Shown: positions 27,748 to 50,066, counted from the first letter of the stretch. The stretch: 64,000 nt of DNA from Candidatus Cloacimonadota bacterium (GCA_049903315.1 JBNGBT010000003.1:64001-128000); one strand, 5' to 3'. Program-made: numbers and translations. Notes: generated from the letters alone by a model not told the origin.

Positions 27748-27823
27748 TGGTGGAGCTAACGGGGCTCGAACCCGTGACCCTTTGTCTGCCAGACAAATGC
27801 TCTCCCAGCTGAGCTATAGCCCC
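27748..27823 (-). tRNA. tRNA-Ala (GGC)
   Basis: Reverse complement GGGGCTATAGCTCAGCTGGGAGAGCATTTGTCTGGCAGACAAAGGGTCACGGGTTCGAGCCCCGTTAGCTCCACCA. 76 nt, G3:U70 pair, anticodon GGC, encoded CCA. Confidence 0.96.
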
Positions 27824-27858
27824 ACGTATTGCGTAAAATCTATGTGCGAGTTTTTATG

Positions 27859-28320
27859 TCAAATTTTGCTGTTTGGAAATTGTTCTTTAATAATAATAGA
27901 AGTAATCTCAGGAATTACCTCAGCAACTTTTTCAGTGCATTTCTCGGAAAAGGTAAAAATATCTTCAACTTCAATCGCATAAATTATAATTTCTTTCGGA
28001 AGATCAGCATCGTGTTTTTTCATAAGTTCGAGTGCGCTGAACATATCCATGTCGTGCGGGGAACTGTGATGGAGTGTGGATTTGAATTCCTCGATGCCAA
28101 ACTTGAAATAATTACCGGGTTGTCCATTCTTGGTTCTGATTGAATCAATTAAGATAAGCTTGTCATAACCGATTATTTCATCAACAACACGAAATCCAGC
28201 AGCACTTGCTTCGATTACATCTATATCAGGTAGTTTTTCCTTGATCAGTCTGGCGACGTGAATCCCAACACCATCATCAGAGAGAATTGTGTTACCAAGT
28301 CCAAGAACAAGGGTTTTCAC
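27859..28320 (-). CDS. Hydrogenase maturation protease
   Basis: LGLGNTILSDDGVG, ILIDSI and SSPHD. Immediately downstream of the large subunit gene. Confidence 0.92.
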   Translation of the reverse strand: MKTLVLGLGNTILSDDGVGIHVARLIKEKLPDIDVIEASAAGFRVVDEIIGYDKLILIDSIRTKNGQPGNYFKFGIEEFKSTLHHSSPHDMDMFSALELMKKHDADLPKEIIIYAIEVEDIFTFSEKCTEKVAEVIPEITSIIIKEQFPNSKI

Positions 28321-28322
28321 GC

Positions 28323-29786
28323 TTAGTCTCTACGAATGGTTTCTACTATTGAATTGTCCTTGTCATGCACGTTTATAATAAGAGGTGTCGAGCCGGGTAA
28401 TGAATGCGTCGCACATGCCATACAGGGGTCATATGCACGGAAAGCCATTTCCACCATGTTTAGCAAACCATCATCAACCTTACCGTTCTTAATAAGGGCT
28501 TTGGCGGCTTTTGCAATAGAAAGTGACATTGCTGCAGAATTTCCAACAGTCGCAACAATCAGGTTTACTGCTTTGACCATTCCCTGCTCATCAGTTTTAT
28601 AATGATGAATAAGTGTACCTCGTGCAGCTTCAACGATGCCAACACCTTCAGATGGTGTCTCAGTAGGTATATTTCTGATATCTGGAGAAATGATCGTTTT
28701 ATCTTCGAGCAGTTCAATAATATGCTCGGATGCGTATAAAGCTTCGATCAAGCGTGCCCAGTGGAATGCCAGCGTGTTATGTGCCGGTTTGCCACCGAGT
28801 GTTTCATACATGCGCTCATATTCTTCTTGAGCCATTGGAGTTGCCATGCCATCAGAAACATTGAGACGCGCAAGAGGAGCAACGCGGTAAATCCCACTTT
28901 TCTTTCCATCTTCAAAGCCTTTCCAGCCGATGGTTTTGAGGAAGGGGAATTTCATATAACTCCAGGGCTCAACGTGTTCTGCGATCTGCTGCAGATATTC
29001 CTCAGGTCCGAATTTTGAAAATTCTTTGCCGTCAGGATCGACCACACGGACTTTGCCGTCATAAAAATTCACTTTATTATTTTCATCGACCAAGCCCATG
29101 TAATAGGTTTTGTGTTTATAAATATCACCGACAATAAGATCAACATATGCATTATTGCCAAGGACAATATTGTTGAATATTTCGATGCTTTCTTTTGCGA
29201 AATCTCGCGCTTCGAGAGCAATTTTCAGGAATTCCAGTCTTTTTTCTTCAGTCAAACCCTTAGAGACACCGCCGGGAAGCCCACCAACAGGATGGATTAT
29301 CCTGCCGGAGAGATACGTAACGATATTTCTTATCTGTCTGCGGTTTTTGATTACTCTGGTCCCGATTTCCAAGCCGACTTTTGCAATAACGCCAAGAATA
29401 TTACGCTCTTTTGCAGGTGCTGATGGTGTGACTACAAAATCAGGACCGCCAAGGAAGAAGAAGTGCAGCATGTGATCTTCAAATATATAGGAATCATAGA
29501 CAAGTTGGCGAAGTTTCTTTGCAGTTTCAGTTGGTTTGACATTATATACGGCATCGACTGTTTTCGTGGAAGCCATATGATGAGCCATGGGACACACACC
29601 GCAAATTCGTGGTGTGATACGTGGCAGTTCTTCGACGGGACGGTCAATGCAAAACTGCTCAAACCCCCTTAATTCAGGAATTTGCAGATATGCATTTTCT
29701 ACATTGCCGCTGTCGTCTAAAAATATTTCTATTTTACCATGGCCTTCCAGCCTGGTAATAGGATCTATAGTGACTTTTGTACCCAT
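28323..29786 (-). CDS. mvhA: [NiFe]-hydrogenase large subunit, MvhA/group 3c type
   Basis: TRLEGHG, L1 PRICGVCPMAH and L2 AFRAYDPCMACATH, followed by a cleavable C-terminal tail. Confidence 0.93.
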   Translation of the reverse strand: MGTKVTIDPITRLEGHGKIEIFLDDSGNVENAYLQIPELRGFEQFCIDRPVEELPRITPRICGVCPMAHHMASTKTVDAVYNVKPTETAKKLRQLVYDSYIFEDHMLHFFFLGGPDFVVTPSAPAKERNILGVIAKVGLEIGTRVIKNRRQIRNIVTYLSGRIIHPVGGLPGGVSKGLTEEKRLEFLKIALEARDFAKESIEIFNNIVLGNNAYVDLIVGDIYKHKTYYMGLVDENNKVNFYDGKVRVVDPDGKEFSKFGPEEYLQQIAEHVEPWSYMKFPFLKTIGWKGFEDGKKSGIYRVAPLARLNVSDGMATPMAQEEYERMYETLGGKPAHNTLAFHWARLIEALYASEHIIELLEDKTIISPDIRNIPTETPSEGVGIVEAARGTLIHHYKTDEQGMVKAVNLIVATVGNSAAMSLSIAKAAKALIKNGKVDDGLLNMVEMAFRAYDPCMACATHSLPGSTPLIINVHDKDNSIVETIRRD

Positions 29787-29792
29787 GATATA

Positions 29793-30806
29793 TTATTTCT
29801 CCTCTTTTGAATCGGTCATAATTTTTCTGCGGAAATAGGATTTCGCAAGAGAGAATCGATAGAACAGACCTGCTGGATCGACAATCTGGTCAAGGAGTTT
29901 CTGAACATGAGCTTCACTCATATCCTCCTCGCCTTCCAGTCCTACTACAGAAGCGAGGGCAGCGATCATTTTCGCGCCGACATCATGTACTTCTGAGGGT
30001 GGTCCATAGCAGCCCCTGCACGGCATATTTGCTGTAATACAGCGTCCGTCATTCTCTCCATTACAGCCCGAACGGGTGACAGGACCCATGCAAATGATCC
30101 CCTGTGCAAGAAAGCATTTTTCGGGATCTACTTGTACTAATGAGACACGATTTATTTTATCCAGAGATAGTTTTTCCGGTTTAGTTTCATTTCTGGAGCA
30201 TACTTCGCAGAGCGCTTTGTTTGGAGCGAGAACTGTTCCTTTTGGAGGTAGATCTCCGGATAAGATCGTTTTGATTGCACGCATGGTGAGATAGGGAGCA
30301 GGAGAACAGCCCGGGAGATAGTAATCCACATCAATGACTTGATCGGTCGCTTTCACCGTGTTGTGGAATTTTGGAAGCGTGAGTTCACCCTCTGGTACTT
30401 CGGATAGCTCTTGTGGGACAACGCCATCTGGATTATCAACAGAGGGGCATTTGCCCCCATAGGATGAAGCGAAAATAGATTCCCTATCCCAGAAATTTGC
30501 AAGACCAGGTATGCCGCCAAGCTGCGAACAGGATCCGAAAGAAATAATGAGTTGCGCTTTCTTACGAAGCAGTTTTGCCATCTCTTCCTGCTCGTCTGTA
30601 CGAATAGCTCCATTTATAAAGCATACAGTGATCTCATTATCCTGCATGTTTTTTACATCTGATGTCTTGAAATCCATCGCACAGGGCCAGAATACTATAT
30701 CGATGAGCTCAGCAACTTTCAATATATCCTCATGCAGATCAACGATCGCTTCTTCGCATCCACCACAGGATGCGCACCAATAAAAACCAACTTTTGGCTT
30801 TGCCAT
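29793..30806 (-). CDS. mvhG: [NiFe]-hydrogenase small subunit, MvhG type
   Basis: WCASCGGCEE, FGSCSQLGG, LPGCSP and CFLAQGIICMGPVTRSGC...CRGCYGP. No Tat signal, so cytoplasmic. Confidence 0.92.
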   Translation of the reverse strand: MAKPKVGFYWCASCGGCEEAIVDLHEDILKVAELIDIVFWPCAMDFKTSDVKNMQDNEITVCFINGAIRTDEQEEMAKLLRKKAQLIISFGSCSQLGGIPGLANFWDRESIFASSYGGKCPSVDNPDGVVPQELSEVPEGELTLPKFHNTVKATDQVIDVDYYLPGCSPAPYLTMRAIKTILSGDLPPKGTVLAPNKALCEVCSRNETKPEKLSLDKINRVSLVQVDPEKCFLAQGIICMGPVTRSGCNGENDGRCITANMPCRGCYGPPSEVHDVGAKMIAALASVVGLEGEEDMSEAHVQKLLDQIVDPAGLFYRFSLAKSYFRRKIMTDSKEEK

Positions 30807-30824
30807 TAAACCTCCAAAAATATT

Positions 30825-31263
30825 AAACCACGAATTAACACAGATTTTCTCGAATTATAAAATGATTCTTTCATATTGCAGACTCTGTGAATGAAAGTTC
30901 AAAATAATTGCTAAACGCAATCCGGTGGCTTTTAAATAATTAAGTGCTTGAGCTTTATGAATATCAGTTATTTGCTCAACAGTTTTTAATTCTAATATGA
31001 CTTTATTCTCCACAAGAATATCTGCAAAATAGCTGCCAACATTCTCATTTCTAAACATGACATTTATTTGTTTTTGTTGTTCAGCTTCAATTCCTTCCTT
31101 TCGAAATAGAACCATCATAGCATTTTCATAAACCTTTTCTAAGAAACCCGGTCCGAGTTCTCTATGAACACTCATAGCGACACCTATTATTTTGAACGAA
31201 AGATTTTTAAAAAGAAGTTTTTCTTTTTGCACATTAGTGTCCATTCGAGTTAATCCGTGGTTT
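30825..31263. mobile_element. Inverted-repeat-bounded GxxExxY cassette inserted in the operon
   Basis: Left end AAACCACGAATTAACACAGATTTTCTCGAAT and right end ATTAGTGTCCATTCGAGTTAATCCGTGGTTT are imperfect inverted copies built from ~10-nt units. Confidence 0.6.
30855..31244 (-). CDS. GxxExxY protein
   Basis: VHRELGPGFLEKVYENA, ADILVENKVILELK and QALNYLKATGLRLAIILNF. Confidence 0.92.
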   Translation of the reverse strand: MDTNVQKEKLLFKNLSFKIIGVAMSVHRELGPGFLEKVYENAMMVLFRKEGIEAEQQKQINVMFRNENVGSYFADILVENKVILELKTVEQITDIHKAQALNYLKATGLRLAIILNFHSQSLQYERIIL

Positions 31264-31265
31264 CT

Positions 31266-32933
31266 TTATCTTAATGTTCCTTGATATTCAGTAGTATGTT
31301 GACGTTCTTTTACAGAAGAGGGAGTATAATCTGGTAGCACCATTGGGGAGATATGTTTTTTATCTACTCCGATCTTTTGAACTTCCTTATCATATTCGGT
31401 GATATGGGAAAGGGTCAATGCACCAGTTTTAATTTTCTTTGCGTACTGCGCCGCATAAATACCAGCGCGACGTCCGAAGACAATGAGATCTAGTTGAGAA
31501 TTTCCCATCAAACGATTACGACCATGAATGCCGCCTGCTGCTTCACCAGCAACAAAAAGACCATTAACTTTTGTTTCACAATGATCATTTATTTCTATTC
31601 CGCCGTTCTGGTAATGAAGTGTAGGGTACACAAGGATGGGATCCTGGGTAATGTCAACATCAAATCGCTCGAACTGACGAAGCATAGCGGGCAGGTTTTT
31701 CTTTATTGTGCCTGATCCGCTTATTTTTTCTATTAGCGGCGAGTCAAGCCAGATACCGACCTGACCACCTGGTGTTGGGATACCCAGGTCGCGAGCTGTG
31801 CATTCCCGAATGAACGATGATGCTTCAATATCACGTGGTTCAAGAGGATGAACAAATAAATCACCATTTTTATTTACTGGCTGTGCACCGAGTCCACGAA
31901 GTTTTTCCGTGCAGAGAAATCCAAGAATTTGTGGAGGATACACGGCACCTGTCGGATGATATTGCACCGAATCCATGTACAACAGATTTGCTCCAGCGCG
32001 ATATGCGATTACAAGCCCGTCCGCAGTTGCGCCGTAATGATTGGTCGTTTCAAATCCCTTCACATGAAGGCGCCCAAAGCCACCAGTTGCAATGATAGTA
32101 GCTTTGGCTTTAACTGTGTAATAGTTCCTATTTTCGAGATGGTACAGCACTGCACCTGCGACATTTCCCTTATCGTCTTTAATCAGTTCAACTGCTGGCT
32201 GATGCTCGAGAATCTTAATTTTATCAGGCCTGTTAAGTATCTCATCACGGATAGTTCTGCAAATCGCTGCGCCAGTGTAGTCCCGGGCAGAATGCATACG
32301 GGGACGGCATGTGCCGCCGCCTGGTTTTGTGAGCATTGTTCCTTCTTCAGTCCTGTCAAACATAACACCGAGATCCTGAAGCCAGTGTATCGCATCTGGA
32401 GCTTCTGAGACCAATGCTTTGACCAGTGCGGGGACATTATCAAAGTGTCCGCCACCCATCACATCGAGATAATGAAGGATAGGATTGTCATCAGGAAGAA
32501 CTGCTGCCTGGATTCCACCCTGAGCCATCATTGAGTTGGAATCCCCGATTCGAAGCTTTGTAACGAGAAGGACATCCGCTCCGTTTTCTGCTGCGAGAAG
32601 TGATGCGGAAAAACCAGCAGAACCTGCCCCAATAACGAGGACATCGGTTTCATAGTCAGGATGTTTCAGGTCGAAAAAGTTCGGCTTGATCCTCGAATAA
32701 GCCTCGAGTTGATCAACGACTTCGGTCGTAATAGTCTCGCCTTTGTTCGGTCCGATACGCACTTTTTTGCGTGCATCTTTCTTATAGTCAGGATGGAAAT
32801 TATCAAGCACTTCCTGCCGTTCTTCCGCAGACATCATCGGGAAGATCGATTTACCTGAACGTGCGAGTTTCAATCGCTCCGGTCGTGTTTTTTCGACTTT
32901 TCTGATCGATTTGCGCATATATTCTGGATACAT
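31266..32933 (-). CDS. Soluble fumarate-reductase/SdhA-family flavoprotein (TfrA-like)
   Basis: VIGAGSAG FAD loop, SNSMMAQGG, IIATGGFG, QYHPTG, EKLRGLG, PRD, HYQNGG, AGE and NRLMGNS. Confidence 0.85.
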   Translation of the reverse strand: MYPEYMRKSIRKVEKTRPERLKLARSGKSIFPMMSAEERQEVLDNFHPDYKKDARKKVRIGPNKGETITTEVVDQLEAYSRIKPNFFDLKHPDYETDVLVIGAGSAGFSASLLAAENGADVLLVTKLRIGDSNSMMAQGGIQAAVLPDDNPILHYLDVMGGGHFDNVPALVKALVSEAPDAIHWLQDLGVMFDRTEEGTMLTKPGGGTCRPRMHSARDYTGAAICRTIRDEILNRPDKIKILEHQPAVELIKDDKGNVAGAVLYHLENRNYYTVKAKATIIATGGFGRLHVKGFETTNHYGATADGLVIAYRAGANLLYMDSVQYHPTGAVYPPQILGFLCTEKLRGLGAQPVNKNGDLFVHPLEPRDIEASSFIRECTARDLGIPTPGGQVGIWLDSPLIEKISGSGTIKKNLPAMLRQFERFDVDITQDPILVYPTLHYQNGGIEINDHCETKVNGLFVAGEAAGGIHGRNRLMGNSQLDLIVFGRRAGIYAAQYAKKIKTGALTLSHITEYDKEVQKIGVDKKHISPMVLPDYTPSSVKERQHTTEYQGTLR

Positions 32934-32957
32934 ATCTATTCTCCTAAACTTTTAAAT

Positions 32958-33644
32958 TTATCCTGTTTTAATATCGCGATCATAATATCGCTTTTTTATG
33001 GTTTCTGCATCAGATTTCTCGAGTTTTTGAAGTTCATCTTCATACAGTCCCTCTGCAATTTCTTTAACTCGATTTTCAAGGTCTGGGCTTTTGGGAAGAA
33101 GATACTTTCCTGTAAGACGGCGAGCAAGGATGGCTGCATTATATTGTACGATTTCTGCAGGGCATCTCAGCGCACATAATCCACAGCGGATACAGTCAAA
33201 TGAAAGATCTGCTGCTCTGGCAACATCACCCCGGATAAGTGCCTGCACATAATCCATCACTTCGATATCCTGAGGGCATATCTTCGTACAAGTATTGCAT
33301 CCCACACATCTGAACAGTGTCGGATAAAGTGTTTTGAAAGCATCGATATCAGGATCAACTTTATTAATATCGTAAATGGACTTTTCGGCAGGAACAAACG
33401 GAATCTGAGCGATGTTCATTCCGTCTGTGACAACAGTCTGGCATGCAAGACCTGCCTGCAATTTATAGTCACCCTTTTCTCTATACAAGGTTCCGCATGC
33501 ACCACAAAAACCTTCTCGACAACCGACACCAACCGTCAGCTGAAAGCCTGCATACTCCAATGCACCGATTATGGTTGACCCTTCTGGCACATCAAAACCT
33601 TCCCCTAAAATATATACTTTCACCATGGGAACGTTCTTAGGCAT
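32958..33644 (-). CDS. Fe-S subunit ([2Fe-2S] + 2x[4Fe-4S]) of the fumarate-reductase-like enzyme
   Basis: GCREGFCGAC...LACQT, CVGCNTCTKICP and CIRCGLCALRCP. Confidence 0.85.
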   Translation of the reverse strand: MPKNVPMVKVYILGEGFDVPEGSTIIGALEYAGFQLTVGVGCREGFCGACGTLYREKGDYKLQAGLACQTVVTDGMNIAQIPFVPAEKSIYDINKVDPDIDAFKTLYPTLFRCVGCNTCTKICPQDIEVMDYVQALIRGDVARAADLSFDCIRCGLCALRCPAEIVQYNAAILARRLTGKYLLPKSPDLENRVKEIAEGLYEDELQKLEKSDAETIKKRYYDRDIKTG

Positions 33645-33749
33645 TATGATTCCTCCTGCTATTTATAATAATCGTTGAAACATAAAAACTGCACATTGCA
33701 AAGTCTACATTCATTTATTCAGTCCTTTCGATATCATGACTAATTTTGT

Positions 33750-34166
33750 TCATGTACAATCAATCTTAGGAATTGGACCTAATTTCTTGATTTGTTCAGT
33801 AAATTCTTTCATGCTGTTTGCAAATTTTTTTCCTTCGCTTGCAGATATCCATTCCAGTCGAAGACGATTGGGATTCAACCCGAGTTGTTCCAGTACTTTT
33901 TTCAGCAATATCACTCTTCTTTTCGTTTTATAATTACCACTTTGATAATGACAGTCACCGGGATGACATCCGCCTATGAATACACCGTCGCATCCTTTGC
34001 TGAATGCAAGGAGTACATGCTGCGGATCTACACGTGACGAGCAGAGTGTTTTTATCACCACGCCATTTGGCGGATATTTCATGCGTGATGTGCCGGCAAG
34101 GTCTGCACCGGAATAGGTACACCATTTACATAAGAAACAGACAATTTTTGGTTCAAAATCTTTCAT
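33750..34166 (-). CDS. mvhD: Hydrogenase iron-sulfur subunit MvhD
   Basis: FEPKIVCFLCKWCTYSGADLAG, CSSRVDP, GCHPGDCHY and WISASEG. The start is set at MKDFEP (34166). Confidence 0.93.
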   Translation of the reverse strand: MKDFEPKIVCFLCKWCTYSGADLAGTSRMKYPPNGVVIKTLCSSRVDPQHVLLAFSKGCDGVFIGGCHPGDCHYQSGNYKTKRRVILLKKVLEQLGLNPNRLRLEWISASEGKKFANSMKEFTEQIKKLGPIPKIDCT

Positions 34167-34200
34167 GAGATTTCCTACCCCACATGTATATTGGGCGAGC

Positions 34201-36156
34201 TTAAATGCCGCTCGCAATTATCTTGATCATATTATCAATCTGATTATCAGTAAGATTTTTCTGCTGCGCAGCGCCGGAAGGACATGCGCTGATACACGCG
34301 CCGCAACCTTCACAGAGTATTTCGTTCACTTCCACGATTTTGGAAACTTGGTTCAATTTTCGTGCGCCGTACGGGCAGGTTCCCACACAAATCGTACAAC
34401 CGGAGCAAAGGTCTTCATCAACAGATGCTATTATTGGCGAGTGATAGATCTTGTCGCTAGACAACAGAATAAGGGCTTTCGCAGCAGCACCAGAAGCCTG
34501 TGATACAGAATCGGGAATGTCACGAGGTCCCTGCGAAGTCCCTGCAAAATAAAATCCAGCTTGCAGACTTTCTACAGGACGCAATTTCGGATGAGCTTCA
34601 GTTAGGAATCCCTTATCATCAGTGTTGATCTTCAGATTTTTTACGAGATCATGAGAACCCTCGCTTGGCACGATTCCCATTGCAAGAACAACGAGATCGG
34701 CTTTTACTTCGATCTTTTTTCCGCTGAGCGTATCCATACCCATTACGATCATTTTGTCGCCTTCTTTATATATCTTAGCTACTTTACCACGGATATAGAG
34801 GATACCTTCTTCGGACACTGCCTGCTGGACAAATTCCTCATAACGTTTACCTCCTGCCCTGATATCAATGTAAAAGATATAGGGCTGTCCGTTGTGGATC
34901 TTGTGTTTATAAAGTTTCGCATGCTTGAGCGTGTACATGCAGCAAATTTTCGAGCAATAGGAAAGATGATGTTCCGGATCGCGGGAACCGGAGCATTGGA
35001 CAAAGACTATCTCTTTCGGAACTTTGCCGTCAGAGGGTCGATATATTTCACCGCCTGTTGGACCCGTTGCAGAGAGGATTCTCTCGAACTGCAAACTTGT
35101 AATTACATCCGGATATTTTCCATATCCATATTCTGGGATTTTTTCGACAGGATAAAGGTCAAAACCGGTTGCTACAATTACTGCACCTATTTCTTCTTCA
35201 ATAATAGTCTCTTTTGCATCATAATTTATTGCTTCCGCAGTACATTTCTCACGACATTTTCCGCATGCAATAGGTTCTAAGCCGAGGCAATTTTCCACAT
35301 CAAGTGTATAGGTTGCAGGGATTGCTTGCGGGAATGGAATATAAATTGCCTTACGCCATTCGAGTCCTTCCTCTTGCTCGCTTGGAACGAGCACGGGGCA
35401 CACCTCAGTGCAATCGTCACAGAGATTGCATTTAGCAGGATCAACATATAGTGCTTTACGCTTGATCTTTACATTAAAATTACCAATATATCCGTTAATG
35501 CTTTCCACTTCGCTATTTACATAGAGTTTGATATTTTTATGTTTGCTCAATGCCACCATTTTCGGAGTAAGAATGCACTGGGAGCAGTCGAGTGTGGGGA
35601 AGGTTTCAGAAAGCTGTATCATGTGCCCGCCGATTGAAGGCTTCTTTTCGACCATTATTACTTTGAAGCCTGCATCTGCAATATCAAGTGCTGCTTGGAT
35701 ACCGGAAATACCTCCGCCTATAACAAGAGCTTTCTTTGTAACAGGAGCAGAAACAGGATAAAGGGATTCATTCAGTTTAAGTTTTTCAATACCTGTTTTA
35801 ATGATCAATTTTGCTTTATGTGTTCCCTGCTCGATGTCGTTATGGACCCAACTGCATTGCTCGCGGATATTCGCGATCTCCATCTGGTATTCATTAAGAC
35901 CGGATTCCTTCATTACAGTCTGGAACGTGGATTCGTGTAAGGTCGGGGAGCATGCAGCAACGACCACACCGCCCAGTTTGTGTTCTTGGATTGCATTCTT
36001 AATATGATTCTGTCCGGGATCTGAGCACATGAACATATAGTTTTCAATATAGGTAACTCCCGGATAATCAAGCAGTTCTTCGGTGAGTCTTTCGACATCA
36101 ACTGTATCTTTAATGTTTATACCGCAATGGCAAATAAAAACGCCGATTCTTTTCAT
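34201..36156 (-). CDS. hdrA: Heterodisulfide reductase subunit A (flavin-based electron-bifurcating)
   Basis: GVFICHCGINI, VAACSP, ANIREQCSWVH, IGGGISG, TFPTLDCSQCILTPKM, an inserted ferredoxin, YCSKICCMY and a C-terminal 2x[4Fe-4S]. Confidence 0.96.
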   Translation of the reverse strand: MKRIGVFICHCGINIKDTVDVERLTEELLDYPGVTYIENYMFMCSDPGQNHIKNAIQEHKLGGVVVAACSPTLHESTFQTVMKESGLNEYQMEIANIREQCSWVHNDIEQGTHKAKLIIKTGIEKLKLNESLYPVSAPVTKKALVIGGGISGIQAALDIADAGFKVIMVEKKPSIGGHMIQLSETFPTLDCSQCILTPKMVALSKHKNIKLYVNSEVESINGYIGNFNVKIKRKALYVDPAKCNLCDDCTEVCPVLVPSEQEEGLEWRKAIYIPFPQAIPATYTLDVENCLGLEPIACGKCREKCTAEAINYDAKETIIEEEIGAVIVATGFDLYPVEKIPEYGYGKYPDVITSLQFERILSATGPTGGEIYRPSDGKVPKEIVFVQCSGSRDPEHHLSYCSKICCMYTLKHAKLYKHKIHNGQPYIFYIDIRAGGKRYEEFVQQAVSEEGILYIRGKVAKIYKEGDKMIVMGMDTLSGKKIEVKADLVVLAMGIVPSEGSHDLVKNLKINTDDKGFLTEAHPKLRPVESLQAGFYFAGTSQGPRDIPDSVSQASGAAAKALILLSSDKIYHSPIIASVDEDLCSGCTICVGTCPYGARKLNQVSKIVEVNEILCEGCGACISACPSGAAQQKNLTDNQIDNMIKIIASGI

Positions 36157-36165
36157 TATAATCCT

Positions 36166-37044
36166 TTACATTAAACCTTTTTCTTTAAGCAGGGGCTCGG
36201 GATTGACATAATGTAGTTTCTTCCAGTCCTTATTCCATTTCTGCCCAAGTGCAATTGCCATGAGTTCTGTAAAATAGAAAACAGGCATGGGTGTAAATTC
36301 CAAAAATTCTTTAGATGTTTCTTTCTGTCGCTGATCGAGGTTGAATGCACATAGCGGACAGCTTGTGATAAGTGCTTCACAACCAGCATCGCGTGCGGAG
36401 TTTATGATCTCATAAGTCCTTTTTACCGTCACATCTGTTTCGATAATGGTTTGATATGCTCCGCAGCATTCCAGCCGGTAAGGAAATACAACACCCTCGC
36501 CGCCAAGTGTATTCACAAGCTCTTCCATAATAGTGGGATCTTCATAATCATCTATTGCAAGTTCTTTCGGGCGTACAAGAAGGCATCCGTAATATGCGCC
36601 GATCTTCATATCTTTAAGGGGTTTTGTAATCTTTTCCTTGATTCCCTCAAAAGTAATTCTATTCTTGAGAATGCTCAGAAGATGCACAACATCTGTCGTC
36701 CCCTTGAATTTTGAATCTTCTTTGTACATGAAGTCATTGACTTTACGCAGATTTTCTTCATCATTAAGAATGAATTCCTTTGCCCTTTTCAGTGTATTAT
36801 AGCACATACTGCACAAAGTTACAAGTTCATCATATCCCTGATTCTCAGCGCGGAGAAGATTTCTGATCGAAGAAAGCTGAAGCATGAGGTCATCTGTCGT
36901 CATTGAGAATACAGTGCCGCAACAGATCCAATTTTCCATCTCTTCTAACGGTTGTCCGAGCACTTCCATGACTTGCATAGCGGATTCTTCAAAATGCTTG
37001 GCATTTGTCTTCAGAGTGCAACCCGGGAAATATCCAAGTTTCAT
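36166..37044 (-). CDS. hdrB: Heterodisulfide reductase subunit B (two CCG domains)
   Basis: YFPGCT...WICCG...LCSMC and YYGCLL...ECCG...SCPLC. Confidence 0.92.
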   Translation of the reverse strand: MKLGYFPGCTLKTNAKHFEESAMQVMEVLGQPLEEMENWICCGTVFSMTTDDLMLQLSSIRNLLRAENQGYDELVTLCSMCYNTLKRAKEFILNDEENLRKVNDFMYKEDSKFKGTTDVVHLLSILKNRITFEGIKEKITKPLKDMKIGAYYGCLLVRPKELAIDDYEDPTIMEELVNTLGGEGVVFPYRLECCGAYQTIIETDVTVKRTYEIINSARDAGCEALITSCPLCAFNLDQRQKETSKEFLEFTPMPVFYFTELMAIALGQKWNKDWKKLHYVNPEPLLKEKGLM

Positions 37045-37110
37045 ACGTTTGTTCCTTTAATAATTTTCATACAAACTAATATAATTATTTTTAATATTCA
37101 TCATCAACTT

Positions 37111-37518
37111 CTAACCTGTAAGTTTGCGAAATGCGCTGACCAATGCAATTTGCGGAAGGTCTTTCAGCTCTTTTGATGAAAGGTCTTCGGGTTTAAGTGT
37201 ACCCCCCCGCTGGCGAAGATTGATAGTGCGAAGCGCTTCCATAACTTGTGCAACCTCTATGCCTTTTGGACAGCGTGTCGAGCACTGCAGGCATGTCGAG
37301 CATATCCAGATAGTTTTTGAGTTAAGTAATTCATCGACGCAGCCGAGTTGAGCAAGACGAATAACCTGGTTGGGAGGTAAGTCCATGTAATCAGTAACAG
37401 GGCAGCCGGACGAACAAATTCCGCATTGATAACAATCAAATACATTCTGTCCGGAGATTTCTTCAATTTTATCAACAAGAGAATTCTTTATATTTTCGCG
37501 GGTGATCTTTAAACTCAT
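37111..37518 (-). CDS. hdrC: Heterodisulfide reductase subunit C
   Basis: CYQCGICSSGCP and IWICSTCLQCSTRCPKG. Adjacent to hdrB. Confidence 0.9.
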   Translation of the reverse strand: MSLKITRENIKNSLVDKIEEISGQNVFDCYQCGICSSGCPVTDYMDLPPNQVIRLAQLGCVDELLNSKTIWICSTCLQCSTRCPKGIEVAQVMEALRTINLRQRGGTLKPEDLSSKELKDLPQIALVSAFRKLTG

Positions 37519-38057
37519 TATTGTTCCTCATTATAATCATAACCTGCCTGAAATGCTTTCATGTTCAGGTCTTTGAATTTACTGGGTACAGAATCAGAGA
37601 TAGCTTCCTTCATTGCATCAGGAGATACTATCTTTGCCTGTTTTGTTGCGAATCCCAGCATAACTATGTTTGCCACGATCTTTTTACCAAGTTCTTCAGC
37701 AAGACGGGTTGCAGGAATTCCTTTTGCAATAAAATCTTTATGTGACTGTATCTTCTCCACAAGATCAGTATCATACAAAAGGATACCGCCATTTTTCAGG
37801 ATCGGAAGAAAGGTATCATATCCTTCCTGGGACATTGCAAGGAGAACATCGGCACTATCAACAAGCGGGTATTCAACATTTTGGGATGAAATGACAACCT
37901 GCGAGCTACAAGCGCCACCACGAGCTTCCGGTCCGTATGCCTGGGTCATGGAAGAGTGTTTCTGATCATATATTGAAGCTGCTTTTCCAACAATGAAGGC
38001 TGAGAGGATAATGCCCTGTCCGCCAAATCCTGATATTTTAACTCTGAGTTCGCTCAT
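37518..38057 (-). CDS. korC: 2-oxoacid:ferredoxin oxidoreductase gamma subunit
   Basis: SGFGGQGII, YGPEARGGAC and NIVMLG. Substrate (2-oxoglutarate) inferred from context. Confidence 0.85.
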   Translation of the reverse strand: MSELRVKISGFGGQGIILSAFIVGKAASIYDQKHSSMTQAYGPEARGGACSSQVVISSQNVEYPLVDSADVLLAMSQEGYDTFLPILKNGGILLYDTDLVEKIQSHKDFIAKGIPATRLAEELGKKIVANIVMLGFATKQAKIVSPDAMKEAISDSVPSKFKDLNMKAFQAGYDYNEEQ

Positions 38058-38074
38058 GTATTGCTCCTGACAAA

Positions 38075-39007
38075 TTAAAAATCTCTACTTGCTGTATATT
38101 TTCGATCTTTTCTATGTGTAATTTTTCTGGAATTGCTTTGCATCTCTTCCCAGTTTGAAAACTTTGCTAACCGGGTTTTAATACCAGCCTGGACATTTTC
38201 CCAGAAAGTGGGTCTGTCTTCATTTACAAATTCACCACACACGATCTCATTATCCATGCTGAGAGGTATTTGTGTTGGGTCAGCTTCATGGTTTATAATA
38301 GCTCGTGTCTGGAATTCTTTAAGCAGATCCAGCCCTGTTCCACCCTTATTTTTACGCGCAAAAACCGTTGCACAGGGAGAGACTATCTCTATAAAGCAGA
38401 AACCTTTTTTGTTGGCAGCCCTCGCAATTGAATCTGTCAAACGACGGGCATGCATTGTGGTCCAGCGAGCTACATAACTTGCGCCTGCAGCAGCTGCAAG
38501 CCCAACCAGATTAAAGGGCATCTCATAGTTGCCGTATGGAGCGGTCGAACTATAAGCGCCAAGTGGAGTAGTAGGGGCGTTTTGCCCACCGGTCATGCCA
38601 TATATGAAATTGTTCACACAGATCACATTAATATCTACATTTCTTCTTGCTGCATGGATGAGATGGTTTCCACCGATTGCAAAGAGGTCACCGTCCCCAG
38701 AAAATACAAATACTGTAAGATCGCGATTTGCGAGTTTCAGCCCTGTCGCAAAAGGTATTGCTCGACCGTGAGTCGTATGATAAGAATCAAGCCGAAGATA
38801 GCCGGCAACTCGACCGGTACAGCCGATGCCCGACACTATTGCTGTTTTATCATAAGACACGCCTGCTTTTTTCAAACCTTCTATAAAGGTTGTCACTGCT
38901 GAGCCAAGCCCACACCCGGAGCACCAGATATGAGGCATTCTATCCATTCTCAGGAGATCTTCCATTGGATGGGATATTTCTTGTATTTGAGCTGTATTAT
39001 TTGCCAT
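38075..39007 (-). CDS. korB: 2-oxoacid:ferredoxin oxidoreductase beta (TPP-binding) subunit
   Basis: WCSGCG, SGIGC, HTTHGRA, GDGDLFAIGGNH and NNFIYGMTGGQ. The start is set at MANNT (39007), overlapping the alpha gene end. Confidence 0.88.
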   Translation of the reverse strand: MANNTAQIQEISHPMEDLLRMDRMPHIWCSGCGLGSAVTTFIEGLKKAGVSYDKTAIVSGIGCTGRVAGYLRLDSYHTTHGRAIPFATGLKLANRDLTVFVFSGDGDLFAIGGNHLIHAARRNVDINVICVNNFIYGMTGGQNAPTTPLGAYSSTAPYGNYEMPFNLVGLAAAAGASYVARWTTMHARRLTDSIARAANKKGFCFIEIVSPCATVFARKNKGGTGLDLLKEFQTRAIINHEADPTQIPLSMDNEIVCGEFVNEDRPTFWENVQAGIKTRLAKFSNWEEMQSNSRKITHRKDRKYTASRDF

Positions 39008-40154
39008 GTGCGACCTCTTCAATTGCGTGCAGCACGTCTTCAAATTTATGTATGCCGCCACCGGGATGTGGAACAAGTTTGACGTGTGAATTGTCATGTG
39101 AGCATCGTTCTACTTCGAGTGATATTTGCCCGAGATTCATTTCGGGAACGATAAAACCAGCCACTTTTCCTGAAAGTTTGCGTATTTTTTCTTCGGGGAA
39201 AGGCCATACTGTTTTTAAGCGTAAATATCCAACTTTAATTCCCTTTTTCTTTGCCATAGTTATCGCAGGGAGAACAGTGCGGGATGTAATTCCATAGGAA
39301 ATCACGATCACATCTGCACCTTTGATATCATATTCTTCAGTTAGAGAAATATCATTTATATTATTTTTGATTTTATTCACAAGCCTGGGCACGAGTTCTT
39401 CCTGGCATTCAACGGACATGTCTGGATAACCACGTCTGTCATGAGTGAGTCCTGTTGTATGATAGCGATATCCGTCACCAGCTTTTGCAAAATCAGGGAT
39501 TAGATTTTTACCATAATCATATGCGAGATAATCTGCTGGTTTTTTATTTGTATATTTCCTATTAATAATCTCAAGTTCTTCAATTGGGGGAATGATAACT
39601 TTCTCTGTCATGTGTCCTACGAGTGCGTCTGCCATAAGGAAAACTGGTAGTCTGTACTTTTCAGAAAAATTGAAAGCAGTTACTGTGAGATCAAAGAATT
39701 CCTGGGGTGAGTTCGGTACAAGAGAGATACTTCCGTAGTCACCATGTGAACCCCATCGAGCCTGCATCATATCTGATTGTCCCCAGGTGGTTGGAAGTCC
39801 TGTGGAAGGCGAACCTCTTTGTACATTGACCACTACGCATGGAGCTTCCATCATCATACCAAGACCGATGTTCTCGTTCATGAGCGAGATGCCCGGTCCA
39901 GATGTTGCGGTCATGGATTTCATGCCAGCCCACGAAGCGCCGAGTATTCCTGCCATTGATGCAATTTCGTCTTCATACTGTATAAATACTCCCTGAAGAA
40001 GCGGGAGTCTCATTGCCATACGTTCTGCAATTTCTGATGCGGGAGTTATAGGATAGCCCCCAAAGAAACGGCACCCGGCAGCAAGTGCACCTTCAGCACA
40101 GGCGATATCGCCCTGCATGAAAAATTCACCATGTAATCGTGATTCTTGGAACAC
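38997..40154 (-). CDS. korA: 2-oxoacid:ferredoxin oxidoreductase alpha subunit
   Basis: GYPITPASE, EDEIAS, TATSGPG, QRGSPSTGLPT and EMNLGQ. Confidence 0.88.
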   Translation of the reverse strand: MFQESRLHGEFFMQGDIACAEGALAAGCRFFGGYPITPASEIAERMAMRLPLLQGVFIQYEDEIASMAGILGASWAGMKSMTATSGPGISLMNENIGLGMMMEAPCVVVNVQRGSPSTGLPTTWGQSDMMQARWGSHGDYGSISLVPNSPQEFFDLTVTAFNFSEKYRLPVFLMADALVGHMTEKVIIPPIEELEIINRKYTNKKPADYLAYDYGKNLIPDFAKAGDGYRYHTTGLTHDRRGYPDMSVECQEELVPRLVNKIKNNINDISLTEEYDIKGADVIVISYGITSRTVLPAITMAKKKGIKVGYLRLKTVWPFPEEKIRKLSGKVAGFIVPEMNLGQISLEVERCSHDNSHVKLVPHPGGGIHKFEDVLHAIEEVAHGK

Positions 40155-40414
40155 TATTCCTCCTTCTCAGTAACAAATATTGCAAAATCAGGACAGATCA
40201 TTTCACATAAGCCACAAAAAGTACACTTGTCCGGTTTTGCGACAACAGGAGGATGATATCCCTTTTTGTTAAAATCCTTGGAGAGTTCAAGTACATCTCT
40301 GGGACAGTACTCGATACAGAAGGAGCATCCTTTACATCGATCGGTGATGATATGGATTTCTCCGCATATTGTTTTGGGTTTTTCTTTCCCAAATGGCTTT
40401 TCCCAATATCTCAT
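40154..40414 (-). CDS. korD: 2-oxoacid:ferredoxin oxidoreductase delta (2x[4Fe-4S] ferredoxin) subunit
   Basis: CKGCSFCIEYCP and CTFCGLCEMICPDFAI. Confidence 0.85.
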   Translation of the reverse strand: MRYWEKPFGKEKPKTICGEIHIITDRCKGCSFCIEYCPRDVLELSKDFNKKGYHPPVVAKPDKCTFCGLCEMICPDFAIFVTEKEE

Positions 40415-40603
40415 TCAAAACTCCTTGGAGTTGATAATCGGAATTTGAAATTCTTCAATAGGCCGTAAAAATTTATATTTTCTTGAAACAAATACATTTA
40501 TTGAATCCTTTTTCAAGATTTTCAACCTGCTGTTCTTCGATAAATTATAATTTCTAATTTCAAAAATTTCTTTCGTATTTTATCTAGTTTCAAATTTCGA
40601 GTT

Positions 40604-41164
40604 TCAAGTTTCAATTTTATATTTCTCGACACCTTCCTGATAGATGTCATTTCCATAAATATCATTTGCGACAATGCACGGAAAATCCTCGACTTTGAGT
40701 TCGCGAATTGCTTCAGTTCCGAGATCATCGTAAGCAATCACTTTTGCAGCAGTAATGGATTTGGCAACGACCACTGCAGCTCCGCCGATCGCAGCGAGAT
40801 ACACTGCCTTGTTCTTTTTCATGGAATCGATAACTGCCTGACTGCGAGGACCTTTGCCGATCATGCCTTTGAGTCCGACATCCATAAGTGCAGGTGCATA
40901 GGGGTCCATTCTATAGCTTGTGGTAGGACCTGCAGAACCGATCGGTTTTCCGGGAGGAGCCGGAGCAGGACCAACGTAATATATTATTTGCCCTTTTATA
41001 TCAAAGGGAAGTTCTTTTCCTGCTTCAACAAGATCGACCAACCGCTTGTGTGCTGCATCCCGCCCTGTGTAGATCGTTCCGGAAATAAGCACTTTGTCGC
41101 CGATAGAAAGTTTGGAAACATCTTCATCTGTCAAAGGAGTCTGCAATTTTACTGTCTGTGCCAT
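40604..41164 (-). CDS. Class I Fe-S fumarate hydratase, beta subunit (tartrate/fumarate hydro-lyase family)
   Basis: GRDAAHKR, GPTTSYRMD, MIGKG and DLGTEAI. Confidence 0.9.
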   Translation of the reverse strand: MAQTVKLQTPLTDEDVSKLSIGDKVLISGTIYTGRDAAHKRLVDLVEAGKELPFDIKGQIIYYVGPAPAPPGKPIGSAGPTTSYRMDPYAPALMDVGLKGMIGKGPRSQAVIDSMKKNKAVYLAAIGGAAVVVAKSITAAKVIAYDDLGTEAIRELKVEDFPCIVANDIYGNDIYQEGVEKYKIET

Positions 41165-41176
41165 GTGATTTCCTCC

Positions 41177-42022
41177 TTAAATGACTGCTGTTTTATGCCG
41201 TGCTGCATGACATTGAATGTTCACTGCTACAGGCATTGAAGCAATGTGACAAGGTTTGTACATGATGGACACAGCGAGAGCAGTTGTTCTGCCACCGAAT
41301 CCCTGGGGACCGATCCCGAGCTTGTTCACTTTTTCCAGAATTTCCGCTTCTACTTTTGCCCATTTTTTTTCAGGATGAGATTCATTGAGGGGGCGGAGCA
41401 GTGATTTTTTGGCAAGAAGTGCACTCTGCTCAAAGTTCCCGCCAAGACCGACACCTACAACTATTGGAGGACAAGGATTTCCACCGGAACGTCTTACGCG
41501 GTCAACGACAAAATTCACCACGCCCTCGATGCCGTCCGCAGCTTTCATCATTTTCACTTCGCTCATGTTCTCGGAACCACCGCCTTTAGGTGCAACGGTG
41601 ATCTTTATTTTCTCGCCGGGCACAATATCAGTATAAATGAGTCCGGGAGTGTTATCTTTTGTGTTCACACGACCGATGATAGGGTCATCAACAAGAGACT
41701 TACGTAAATAGCCATCTTTATAACCCTGACGGATGCCTTCATGGATCGCTTCATAAAAATCTCCACCCACGAGATGAACATCCTGTCCGAGCTCGACAAA
41801 AACAACTGCCACACCGGTATCCTGGCAGGATGGCATTTTTTCTTTGGCTGCCAGTTCATAATTTTCCAGAAGGATAGCAAGCACTTCCTTTGCTGTTGGA
41901 GACTCTTCTTTTTCGTAAAATTCCTTGATCTTATCTAGCACATCTTCACCAATGTAATAGTTGGCATCGATACACAGTTTTTTGACAACAGGAATAATTT
42001 CTTTTACATCGATTTCTCTCAC
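41177..42022 (-). CDS. Class I Fe-S fumarate hydratase, alpha subunit
   Basis: CQDTG, YLRKS, PKGGGSEN, GNPCPP, GIGPQGFGG and CHAARH. Confidence 0.9.
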   Translation of the reverse strand: MREIDVKEIIPVVKKLCIDANYYIGEDVLDKIKEFYEKEESPTAKEVLAILLENYELAAKEKMPSCQDTGVAVVFVELGQDVHLVGGDFYEAIHEGIRQGYKDGYLRKSLVDDPIIGRVNTKDNTPGLIYTDIVPGEKIKITVAPKGGGSENMSEVKMMKAADGIEGVVNFVVDRVRRSGGNPCPPIVVGVGLGGNFEQSALLAKKSLLRPLNESHPEKKWAKVEAEILEKVNKLGIGPQGFGGRTTALAVSIMYKPCHIASMPVAVNIQCHAARHKTAVI

Positions 42023-42031
42023 GAAAACTCC

Positions 42032-42901
42032 TTATGATAAAACTTCTATGGTTGCTTGTCCGATATCAGCAGGTGATTTGCAAACACGTACACTGGCCTG
42101 TTCAAGGGCGGTCATCTTTTCCTGAGCAGTACCCTTGCTGCCTGCAATGATAGCGCCTGCATGTCCCATCCGCTTTCCTTTGGGCGCGGTCTGCCCAGCG
42201 ATGAAAGCAACAACGGGTTTTTTCATATGATTTTTTATATAATGAGCTGCCTGGATTTCAAGGTCGCCACCGATCTCGCCTATGATAACCACCGCATGAG
42301 TTTCGGGATCGTCTTCAAAACGTTTCAGCAGATCGATAAATGTCGAGCCTATGATCGGGTCACCGCCGATACCGATGGCAGTAGTAACACCCAATCCTGC
42401 TTTCACAACCTGATTTGCAGCTTCGTAGGTTAGGGTGCCGGATTTCGATATGACACCGACATGCCCTTTTTTGAAAATACTTCCCGGCATAATGCCGATC
42501 TTTGCTTCACCTGCCGTGATGATGCCCGGACAGTTCGGTCCGATGAGTACTGAGCCCTTTTTTGTGACGTACATTTTTGCATACATAACATCAAGTGTGG
42601 GAATGCCTTCGGAAATACACACGATAACTTTAATGCCTGCATCGGCAGCTTCCATGATTGCATCTGCAGCAAAAGATGGCGGAACGAGAATGAGTGAGGT
42701 GTCAGCTCCGGTATGATCAACCGCATCTTTGACTGTGCTGAACACAGGTCTGCCAAGATGGATCTGACCTCCTTTACCGGGGGTTACACCACCAACTATA
42801 TTCGTGCCGTATTCAATACACTGCTCTGCATGAAAGGTAGCTTCTTTGCCCGTAAAACCCTGCACTATAACTTTCGAATTTTTATTTACTAATATTCCCA
42901 T
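42032..42901 (-). CDS. sucD: Succinyl-CoA ligase alpha subunit
   Basis: [36 protein letters not shown] and MGHAGA (phospho-His). Confidence 0.96.
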
Positions 42902-42903
42902 GA

Positions 42904-44073
42904 TCACACTCCCTTTGCCGCTTCAACTGCTTTTTGAGCTCCATCAGCGAGACTGCTGGCAGAAATAATATTTGGAATGTGTGCTTTTTGGAGAATTTCC
43001 TGCGCGATTTCAGCATTCGTTCCATCCAGCCGGACAATGACAGGAACAGAAACATTAGTCTCTTTTGCAGCATCGAGTATGCCGTTTGCAATCCTGTCAC
43101 AGCGAACGATCCCGCCGAAAATGTTCACAAAGATCGCTTTTACATTTTTATCTCTGAGAATGATTTCGAAGCCCTTTGCTACAGTTTCTGCCGAAGCATC
43201 TCCGCCGACATCGAGGAAATTTGCTGGTTCGCCGCCTTTGATTTTAATAATATCCATCGTGGACATCGCAAGCCCAGCGCCGTTTACCATGCATCCTACA
43301 TTGCCGTCGAGTTTGATGTAATTCAGGTTGAAATTACTCGCTTCCAGTTCAGTTGGTTCTTCTTCGGAAAGATCACGCATCTCAAGAATATCCGGATGTC
43401 TGAACAGGGCGTTATCATCAAAATTTATTTTTGCATCGAGTGCAATAAAGGTGTCATCATCTTTCAGTACAAGGGGATTAATTTCGATAAGACTCGCGTC
43501 TTTTTCTTTATAGAGTTTATACAAAGCACGGGCAAATTGTGCAAAATTACGGGATTGCAATTTATCCAACCCAAGCCCGTTCGCAAGCATCACACCATGA
43601 AAATTCCTAAAGCCGATCAGGGGATCGATGCGTACTTTAATTATCTTTTCCGGAGATTCCGCAGCGACTTTTTCGATTTCCATTCCGCCTTCGGTCGATA
43701 CGATCATCACAGGCATTTCTGATCCGCGGTCAAGCACCAGCCCAAGATAATATTCTTTCTTGATTGGTGCAACTTCTTCGATATAGATTTTCTGAACGAG
43801 TTTGCCTTTGGGACCTGTCTGGTGAGTGACCAATTTCATGCCCAGCATATTCTCTGCAATGGTTTTTACATCTTCAATCGAGGATGCGATTTTAACTCCG
43901 CCGCCCTTTCCTCTGCCGCCTGCATGCACTTGTGCTTTAACTACCCATTTTTTGCTGTCGATCTCTCGGGCTGCTTCTATTGCTTGCTCAGGAGTCTCGG
44001 CCATCGTGCCGTGTGGGATTGTCACACCATAATGTTTGAAAAGCTGTTTCGCTTGATATTCATGAATATTCAT
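42904..44073 (-). CDS. sucC: Succinyl-CoA ligase beta subunit
   Basis: [42 protein letters not shown] and [10 protein letters not shown]. Confidence 0.96.
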
Positions 44074-44267
44074 ATGATTTTATCAATCTAAAAAATTTAG
44101 TGTGCTCGTAAGAACACGGCATGTTGCTTGTCAAGTGAAATCGGATTTTTCTCGAAAATTTTGGGGAATTTGTTTATTTGCAATTAATTGAGATAAAGTT
44201 CAAGCTTATATATAGTGTAAAAGAGTAATAATTTTTGCAATTTAATTACGGCGTTAAATCCCAATAT

Positions 44268-44299
44268 AAAAAAAGAGACGCACTCTCGTACGTCTCTTT
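44268..44299 (-). terminator. Rho-independent terminator after the carboxypeptidase gene
   Basis: AAAGAGACG...CGTCTCTTT stem with a U-tract on the minus strand. Confidence 0.7.
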
Positions 44300-44322
44300 A
44301 TGTATAAGTAGCTCGCGTTGAG

Positions 44323-50046: not shown

Positions 50047-50066
50047 TGAACAAGAGGAGGCAACTC

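Follow-up and report, generated by a model that had tools for sequence, protein, structure and literature searches.

A soluble Mvh-Hdr, fumarate reductase and 2-oxoacid:ferredoxin oxidoreductase gene cluster in a Cloacimonadota genome: comparison with described systems and a possible bifurcating role

Clusters in which hdr genes stand beside genes for a soluble fumarate reductase and a 2-oxoglutarate:ferredoxin oxidoreductase (OGOR) have been described before. In Ca. Celaenobacter, Williams 2021 (PMC8542988) reported a cluster of thiol:fumarate reductase (TFR), OGOR, fumarase, succinyl-CoA synthetase (SCS), Mvh (group 3c) and Hdr genes and read it as an H2-driven reverse tricarboxylic acid (TCA) cycle. 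Here, we analyzed a run of 18 genes with the same clustered set, located in a window of 64,000 nucleotides (the whole stretch of DNA under study) from a Candidatus Cloacimonadota bacterium (GCA_049903315.1 JBNGBT010000003.1:64001-128000). The run is real, intact, soluble and conserved, and it is already known both as a cluster and as a hypothesis; our analysis adds that its fumarate reductase-like (Frd) pair falls outside the true TFRs, has the look of a one-way enzyme, and follows HdrB in its occurrence rather than ATP-citrate lyase (ACL). As in our genome, ACL, aconitase and isocitrate dehydrogenase (IDH) form a separate cluster in Ca. Celaenobacter, and Rnf and Mbh-Mrp are present too. In the accessible text of that paper the pair is named TFR and coenzymes M and B (CoM/CoB) are drawn, whereas we found neither a thiol-oxidizing domain in the pair nor a CoM-synthesis marker, and the accessible part of its reverse-TCA account does not report the weak phylum-wide link to ACL described below.

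The mechanism is also in print. Rubin-Blum 2019 (PMC6315080) proposed a complex of Kor, Hdr, Flx and Tfr in which electrons are bifurcated straight to OGOR and fumarate reductase, so the novelty that a first, sequence-only reading of our stretch had thought possible is taken up by this proposal and by the cluster of Williams 2021. Going by the published descriptions available, the korABCD-tfrAB-flxABCD-hdrABC cluster of tubeworm symbionts and Thioflavicoccus mobilis has the same co-oriented, interleaved kor, hdr and soluble Frd genes with a donor module, but its donor is NADH via Flx, whereas here it would be H2 via Mvh. Operon-like co-expression of this Flx form in Riftia symbionts was described by Mitchell 2024 (PMC11636981), and the complex was still termed suggested in 2026 (PMC13147460, accessible text). 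In the literature searched, with most subscription journals outside its coverage, we found no purification or assay of an Mvh/Flx-Hdr-Frd-Kor complex. For the succinate operon of Pseudoclostridium thermosuccinogenes, coupling of succinate formation to ferredoxin reduction has been proposed (PMC7282089). It likewise brings together fumarase, an Hdr module and a two-subunit fumarate reductase, but it has an Flx donor, no listed kor or sucCD, and a fermentative role. A 2019 preprint reportedly deals, by its title, with a novel fumarate reductase of this organism.

Three further systems are informative. The methanogen MvhADG-HdrABC complex (PDB 5ODC, 8RVU, 9SFI) has the same six subunits, cluster ligands and bifurcating-flavin Lys/Glu pair, but here no ComA was found and the operon is interrupted by genes for fumarate reductase and Kor. 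Methanothermobacter TfrAB is soluble, provides succinate for 2-oxoglutarate synthesis, and contains the best NCBIfam match of our flavoprotein (TfrA); in contrast, our flavoprotein scores below the cut-off, misses the last 120 profile positions and has an N-terminal extension, and its partner lacks the CCG half of the B subunit. Wolinella SdhABE, a methylmenaquinol:fumarate reductase, is described in the accessible part of PMC2680327 as sharing non-covalent FAD, one-way fumarate reduction and an HdrB-like third subunit, but it is periplasmic, exported by twin-arginine translocation (Tat) and quinol-fed, whereas our pair appears cytoplasmic with no Tat-like motif found. Accessible parts of PMC5773532, PMC12054007, PMC8764690, PMC12542636 and bioRxiv 2025.11.11.687785 were also consulted.

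The run reads on the minus strand from sucC (44073) through the hydrogenase maturation protease gene (27859), and every label of its 18 open reading frames (ORFs) is backed by NCBIfam or Pfam scans. The features, with the flanking hairpin and one distant gene, are as follows.

44272..44299, minus: terminator-like hairpin closing the upstream gene (12 pairs and a T run)
42904..44073, minus: sucC, SCS beta subunit (NF001913, 584 bits, cut-off 370)
42032..42901, minus: sucD, SCS alpha subunit (NF004230, 439 bits, cut-off 336; refined start)
41177..42022, minus: Fe-S fumarate hydratase alpha subunit (NF004885, 413 bits, cut-off 276)
40604..41164, minus: Fe-S fumarate hydratase beta subunit, fumB (NF005310, 286 bits, cut-off 238)
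40154..40414, minus: korD, 2x[4Fe-4S] delta subunit of 2-oxoacid:ferredoxin oxidoreductase (OFOR) (top match OGOR_delta, below cut-off)
38997..40154, minus: korA, OFOR alpha subunit (NF006412, 553 bits, cut-off 411)
38075..39007, minus: korB, OFOR beta subunit (top PDB match 8ys5, E 8e-65; refined start)
37518..38057, minus: korC, OFOR gamma subunit (family scan; stop overlaps hdrC start by one base)
37111..37518, minus: hdrC, 2x[4Fe-4S] (family scan and eight cluster Cys)
36166..37044, minus: hdrB, two CCG domains and ten non-cubane-cluster Cys (domain and motif scans)
34201..36156, minus: hdrA, FAD/Fe-S subunit of bifurcating type by E358 and K411 (5odc_A, E 8e-206)
33750..34166, minus: mvhD, [2Fe-2S] adaptor (PF02662, E 4e-54; refined start)
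32958..33644, minus: FrdB-like Fe-S subunit, one [2Fe-2S] and two [4Fe-4S] motifs (Pfam and motif scans)
31266..32933, minus: soluble flavoprotein of probable fumarate reductase type (NCBIfam, Pfam, PDB alignment, residue conservation)
30855..31244, minus: GxxExxY ORF, mobile filler (TIGR04256)
29793..30806, minus: mvhG, hydrogenase small subunit (NCBIfam and Pfam)
28323..29786, minus: mvhA, [NiFe]-hydrogenase large subunit of putative Mvh/group 3c type (5odc_F, E 9e-124; L1/L2 motifs)
27859..28320, minus: hydrogenase maturation protease (TIGR00072, 106 bits, cut-off 47)
59468..60922, plus: malic enzyme (hidden Markov model, HMM), 15 kb from the cluster here, adjoining it in several relatives

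The sequence-only reading had described 18 co-oriented genes in this order with mostly tiny gaps, an overlap of korC and hdrC, and a Frd-like pair splitting mvhD from mvhGA, and all of this was borne out: every ORF lies on the minus strand, 12 of the 17 junctions span 25 nt or less, base 37518 is common to the korC stop and the hdrC start, and the FrdB-like and flavoprotein genes sit between mvhD and mvhG. The five wider gaps are fumB-korD (189 nt), mvhD-FeS (105 nt), hdrC-hdrB (66 nt), GxxExxY-mvhG (48 nt) and hdrA-mvhD (about 34 nt), with likely starts refined to 42901 for sucD, 39007 for korB and 34166 for mvhD. A scan of 27000-45000 for terminators found 15 sites, where 14.2 +/- 3.1 would be expected by chance, and the one strong hairpin (44299-44272) is likely the 5' boundary of the operon. 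None of these sites, which overall stay at chance level, fell in an internal gap; the scan thereby gave no predicted terminator between the TCA and Hdr/Mvh parts, which the same reading had named as counting against it. Its proposal of a membrane-independent module also held, since the run's proteins show no convincing transmembrane helix (the highest 19-residue hydropathy, 1.73, belongs to the fumarase beta subunit) and no Tat-like motif. The promoter scan of the locus stayed at chance level. Six RNA runs contained 5-8% of the sampled words; four were available as contigs, most pieces of which are less than 95% alike and none of which spans the run, and such contigs carry no strand or single-transcript information.

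The hydrogenase and Hdr genes are complete: hdrABC and mvhDGA are all intact, cluster ligands included. The mvhA product keeps both the L1 and L2 motifs, and its top PDB match is methanogen MvhA 5odc_F (417 bits), followed by 7t2r_D (381 bits); this match, together with the mvhD/hdr gene context, places MvhA in the group 3c type, as had been expected. HdrA aligned with 5ODC over almost its full length and has E358 and K411, two residues shared by all 43 of the 43 homologues with 55% identity or more. The Lys/Glu pair at the HdrA flavin (K409/E356 in M. thermolithotrophicus) has been proposed, in the accessible part of the source, as the mark of bifurcating HdrA. Both CCG domains of HdrB are present with all ten non-cubane-cluster Cys (conserved in 40-41 of 41 homologues), and HdrC keeps its eight cluster Cys in 19/19. 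By these features the Mvh-Hdr half looks competent for bifurcation. The genome has a tRNA-Sec, yet the Mvh/Hdr subunits here use Cys and have no in-frame TGA. Four close relatives carry a tandem second hdrA of about 800 aa (MvhD-fused size) ahead of the 650-aa hdrA; this genome has a single hdrA only.

The flavoprotein carries the evidence on the fumarate end. Its top NCBIfam match is TfrA, but the score of 327 bits stays below the cut-off (718) and the alignment leaves the last 120 profile positions uncovered; about 90 conserved residues extend its N terminus, and an SdhA C-terminal domain is absent. Among its homologues (77 of 82 ORF matches kept after coverage, identity and duplicate filters), H326, T342, E343, R367, H440 and R474 are invariant in 77/77, and these six positions correspond, by motif, to the fumarate-site residues described for E. 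coli FrdA (H232, T244, E245, R287, H355, R390). Asn133 stands at the position of the covalent-FAD His of 7d6v, and it is also Asn in all 77 homologues. Loss of the covalent FAD bond is reported, in the accessible part of the source, to abolish succinate oxidation while fumarate reduction is retained. Because Asn replaces this His while the six fumarate-site residues stay, the residue pattern favors a one-way fumarate reductase rather than a succinate oxidizer. A search of the ESM Atlas returned generic names only.

The FrdB-like subunit of 228 aa contains one [2Fe-2S] and two complete [4Fe-4S] motifs, and its 12 Cys are kept in 74/74 homologues (74 of 82 matches retained). It has no CCG domain (PF02754), and the homologues are uniformly 220-237 aa long (74/74). 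Against the TfrB model, a profile of 488 positions, it reaches only 40 bits (cut-off 385). Its second domain is HdrC-like (hhalign probability 93%), so the subunit could dock on HdrB or HdrA. HdrC aligns to TfrB profile positions 116-220 and HdrB to 262-471; therefore, TfrB resembles FrdB and HdrB fused. It seems that the pair is TfrAB-like at the fumarate end, yet is not a true thiol:fumarate reductase, because with the CCG domain absent it should be unable to oxidize thiols alone. Accordingly, true TfrAB was rejected on the missing CCG domain and the TfrA (327/718) and TfrB (40/385) scores. A membrane-bound Sdh/Qfr was rejected on Asn133 (77/77) and on the lack of an anchor gene or helix in the run; the Sdh/Qfr [3Fe-4S] cluster is not matched either, as both four-Cys motifs are full in 74/74.

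Elsewhere in the metabolic half, the top PDB matches of KorA are 1yd7 and then the 2-oxoglutarate enzymes 8ys5 and 6n2n, and that of KorB is 8ys5. The 2-oxoglutarate-specific models match the Kor beta and delta subunits best but score below cut-off, and genes for pyruvate (POR) and indolepyruvate (IOR) ferredoxin oxidoreductases lie apart from kor elsewhere in the genome.

On balance, we think that the cluster probably carries out 2 H2 + fumarate + succinyl-CoA + CO2 -> succinate + 2-oxoglutarate + CoA through bifurcation at HdrA. MvhAG would oxidize 2 H2 and pass the electrons via MvhD to the HdrA FAD, where they would be bifurcated. The high-potential pair would run through HdrC, HdrB and the FrdB-like subunit to the non-covalent FAD of the flavoprotein and reduce fumarate to succinate, which would make fumarate the final acceptor rather than the CoM/CoB disulfide. 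The low-potential pair would go to ferredoxin, or straight to KorD, and KorABCD would carboxylate succinyl-CoA to 2-oxoglutarate, with fumarate supplied by fumarase and succinyl-CoA by SucCD. Because the Frd pair has no thiol-oxidizing domain of its own, the hand-over from HdrB to FrdB would most likely pass from protein to protein or via a bound thiol. This scheme is firmest in having Frd run reductively, and less firm in the direction given to Kor. With potentials of -414 mV for H2, +33 mV for fumarate and -520 mV for 2-oxoglutarate synthesis, the dG0' of the reaction is about -66 kJ, reaching zero near 0.2 Pa H2. A more tentative extension, which we hold possible but would not assume, is that HdrABC and the CCG-less, extended FrdAB form one soluble thiol-free complex with KorD as built-in ferredoxin, that is, an H2:fumarate/succinyl-CoA bifurcating, CO2-fixing supercomplex.

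The distribution of the cluster defines its core. A flavoprotein search of GTDB genomes gave at least 597 stretches, of which at least 580 could be confirmed, and we analyzed the best 80 loci; in these counts some loci share contigs with other entries, and related genomes are non-independent. The 80 loci span Cloacimonadota, Aminicenantes, Eubacteriales, Sumerlaeota, Marinimicrobia, WOR-3, Spirochaetales, Bacteroidales, Gallionella and others, and an Fe-S (frdB) gene lies beside the flavoprotein gene in 75/80. Within the 44 of these loci with at least 9 kb upstream, hdrA and hdrB are each found in 39 and korA in 32, while six have Mvh as donor module and 24 an Flx-type trio; no locus has both, and 14 have neither. 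The order kor-hdr-mvhD-FeS-flavoprotein-mvhGA, whose synteny the sequence-only reading had proposed to survey, recurs in same-genus and same-family genomes (three loci, for example) and in three loci of other families, far beyond chance. Among the 177 Cloacimonadota genomes that are at least 85% complete, 47 have the flavoprotein and 47 have HdrB, with 44 having both; a close MvhA homologue occurs in 31 (38 listed, with 7 at 38-40% identity dropped), 30 of which also have the flavoprotein. AclA was found in 13 genomes, of which 7 carry the flavoprotein. Of the other six, one (G009) seemed to have lost Frd and Mvh naturally, but this was rejected because its cluster is broken at a contig end. 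As the flavoprotein tracks HdrB (44/47) while ACL accompanies it only in 7/47, the conserved core is therefore HdrABC and FrdAB, with donor modules, kor and sucCD-fum swapped or moved, and it is not an autotrophy module. A GlcD-type FAD dehydrogenase gene lies 3' of the flavoprotein gene in four loci and is a possible third electron-donor module.

The host genome (2.96 Mb, 96% complete) belongs to the Cloacimonadota, and the nearest named flavoprotein homologues among the matches listed are from Cloacimonadota metagenome-assembled genomes at 90-92% identity. The citrate-cleaving enzyme, IDH and aconitase that the earlier reading had proposed to look for were all found, in an acn-aclB-aclA-idh block (G000:C33:171843-179235); AclAB was called on SucCD-like folds, a citrate-synthase domain and its placement between acn and idh. 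AclA is also the sole citrate-synthase-domain match in the genome. No classical Ldh_1 malate dehydrogenase was found in this 96% complete genome, and the only malate dehydrogenase candidate is an Ldh_2-family gene (G000:C44:58642-59742) at the end of a sugar-nucleotide cluster. POR, this Ldh_2-family protein, a PYC/OADA protein and methylmalonyl-CoA mutase are present, as are motifs of glutamate dehydrogenase, and Mbh-Mrp, hyp, Rnf and pyruvate phosphate dikinase (PPDK) genes were read by eye from translations. Our motif scans by regular expression missed the HMM-found malic enzyme and PPDK on contig C1, so their blanks, including phosphoenolpyruvate carboxykinase, are not counted as absences. 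By gene content, the genome appears to carry a full ACL-type reverse TCA set, with Ldh_2 and malic enzyme as candidates for the malate step, and the segment in our cluster could be closed into such a cycle here; in most relatives it would form the reductive branch only. AclA is 89-96% identical across two Cloacimonadota families in which the Frd flavoprotein is mostly 66-74% identical, and the block is patchy, which suggests recent spread of the ACL block by horizontal transfer. Monomeric IDH tracks ACL (15/177), and 5/5 module genomes without ACL have a PF00180 protein, possibly IDH or LeuB.

Several points weigh against the proposed reaction. The 2-oxoglutarate specificity assigned to Kor comes from best matches and neighboring genes, with the specific models below cut-off. 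As an intact protein of the disulfide-reductase type, HdrB is more than a pure wire would call for. ACL occurs in only 7/47 flavoprotein genomes (8/48 counting G009), and five ACL genomes lack the flavoprotein. In one complete genome, frdBA and kor-hdr-mvh are about 2.4 Mb apart, and hdrA is missing from 5 of the 44 long loci. In Riftia symbionts, tfrAB departed from the expression of the rest of the cluster (PMC11636981, accessible text). Cloacimonadota are described mainly as fermentative in the accessible part of PMC12590816, which gives MvhADG-HdrABC in 11 of 19 clade B genomes and reverse-TCA genes as not widespread in the phylum. A full reverse TCA turn plus pyruvate synthesis would also need extra reduced ferredoxin. 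This bears on what had been claimed at the outset: the balance of one fumarate reduced per CO2 fixed fits this segment but would not extend to pyruvate synthesis; the self-contained bifurcating module stands as regards solubility and the HdrA residues (43/43), but it would not be self-contained for autotrophy; and a carbon-fixation purpose agrees with the full ACL-type gene set here but is weakened generally by the ACL counts. The analogy to Tfr and a thiol/disulfide cycle is not supported in the form drawn, since the Frd pair lacks CCG and neither a second CCG protein nor a ComA or DsrC match was found in the 96% complete genome.

The genes would also fit a fermentative succinate hub, to which we give a real, though minority, chance. 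Here Hdr and Frd would work as proposed above, turning H2 and fumarate into succinate and reduced ferredoxin, but Kor and SucCD would run oxidatively on glutamate-derived 2-oxoglutarate and yield ATP and further reduced ferredoxin; the ferredoxin would go to Rnf or the Mbh-Mrp hydrogenase, and succinate would be excreted or pass via methylmalonyl-CoA to propionate. This genome has Rnf, Mbh-Mrp, glutamate dehydrogenase motifs and methylmalonyl-CoA mutase, 40/47 module genomes show no ACL match, the Flx form produces succinate in a fermenter (P. thermosuccinogenes), and four loci combine an hdrACB-frdBA core with sucCD, fumAB and malic enzyme without an adjacent mvh. However, many phyla have their kor genes set between hdrCB and hdrA, as would suit low-potential electrons being handed directly to Kor, and this genome has ACL, aconitase and IDH with no citrate synthase found.

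A free thiol shuttle of the methanogen kind, as in Williams 2021, which concerns the Hdr-Frd link and not the reaction direction, is unlikely. HdrB would reduce a free disulfide and Tfr would re-oxidize the thiols with fumarate, a scheme workable only as a split Tfr with a second HdrB copy on FrdB. Both non-cubane-cluster motifs in HdrB, the resemblance of TfrB to fused FrdB and HdrB, the HdrC-like second domain of FrdB, and the position of hdrB immediately upstream of frdB in many loci are all consistent with it. They are set against an FrdB of 220-237 aa without a CCG domain (74/74), TfrA and TfrB scores far below cut-off, and the lack of any gene for a candidate thiol carrier in the cluster; our searches of the 96% complete genome gave no CCG protein other than HdrB, no DsrC match and no match to ComA, the sole CoM-synthesis marker searched. 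The ComA result, for one genome and this marker, gives no support to CoM-S-S-CoB as the high-potential acceptor.

Running the system backward is very unlikely. Succinate oxidation and reduced ferredoxin would be confurcated to H2 for syntrophic propionate oxidation via methylmalonyl-CoA, and the accessible part of a 2025 preprint does interpret the cluster of marine Cloacimonadota as resembling mmc and tied to the oxidation of propionate; methylmalonyl-CoA mutase is present here as well. But the covalent-FAD His is missing in 77/77 and the bond is reported necessary for succinate oxidation. At standard concentrations and with the potentials given above, the reverse reaction would need H2 below about 0.2 Pa.

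That the genes are only co-located, with the flavoprotein an L-aspartate oxidase (NadB) or an enzyme for another substrate and Mvh-Hdr serving its own disulfide, we find scarcely credible: NadB structures are among the top PDB matches of the flavoprotein and the genome has a NadA match without a separate NadB-like match to the flavoprotein query, but the NadB model TIGR00551 gives 272 bits against a cut-off of 453, close relatives have the flavoprotein plus a separate weak homologue that is likely NadB, and a dedicated Fe-S partner (75/80 loci) and tight HdrB co-occurrence (44/47) argue for rejecting it. The sole NadA match (G000:C55:73809-74744) lies inside an apparent surface-polysaccharide cluster.

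Few acceptors of HdrABC are known outside methanogens; if fumarate is the one used in this family, a widespread cluster (at least 580 GTDB stretches) gains a function, and the two difficult reductions of the reverse TCA cycle could be driven by H2 or NADH with no membrane involved. The thiol-free supercomplex, if true, would identify the high-potential acceptor for a large class of non-methanogen Hdr enzymes. The acceptor question has been in print since 2019, and for Cloacimonadota since 2021, so this locus sharpens rather than opens it. The TFR label is misleading, and the cluster is unsuitable as an autotrophy marker. For tests, the cultured Flx-form carriers T. mobilis and P. thermosuccinogenes are preferable to this uncultured genome.

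Other features of the locus are minor. The GxxExxY ORF has 31% GC against 37-47% in the surrounding genes and five paralogues in the genome, and it is gained, lost or shifted among relatives; therefore, it was rejected as a complex subunit. Such ORFs occur at differing operon junctions in six related loci and resemble a small mobile or junction-seeking element. A tRNA-Ala(GGC) gene (27748-27823, minus strand) begins 35 bases past the protease stop on the same strand and may be co-transcribed with the operon or mark its end. The operon is flanked (23785-26517, 44323-46836, 50046-54250) by genes for large secreted proteins with C-terminal domains of the type IX secretion (T9SS) kind, including one that is probably a zinc carboxypeptidase, which agrees with a lifestyle of peptide degradation.

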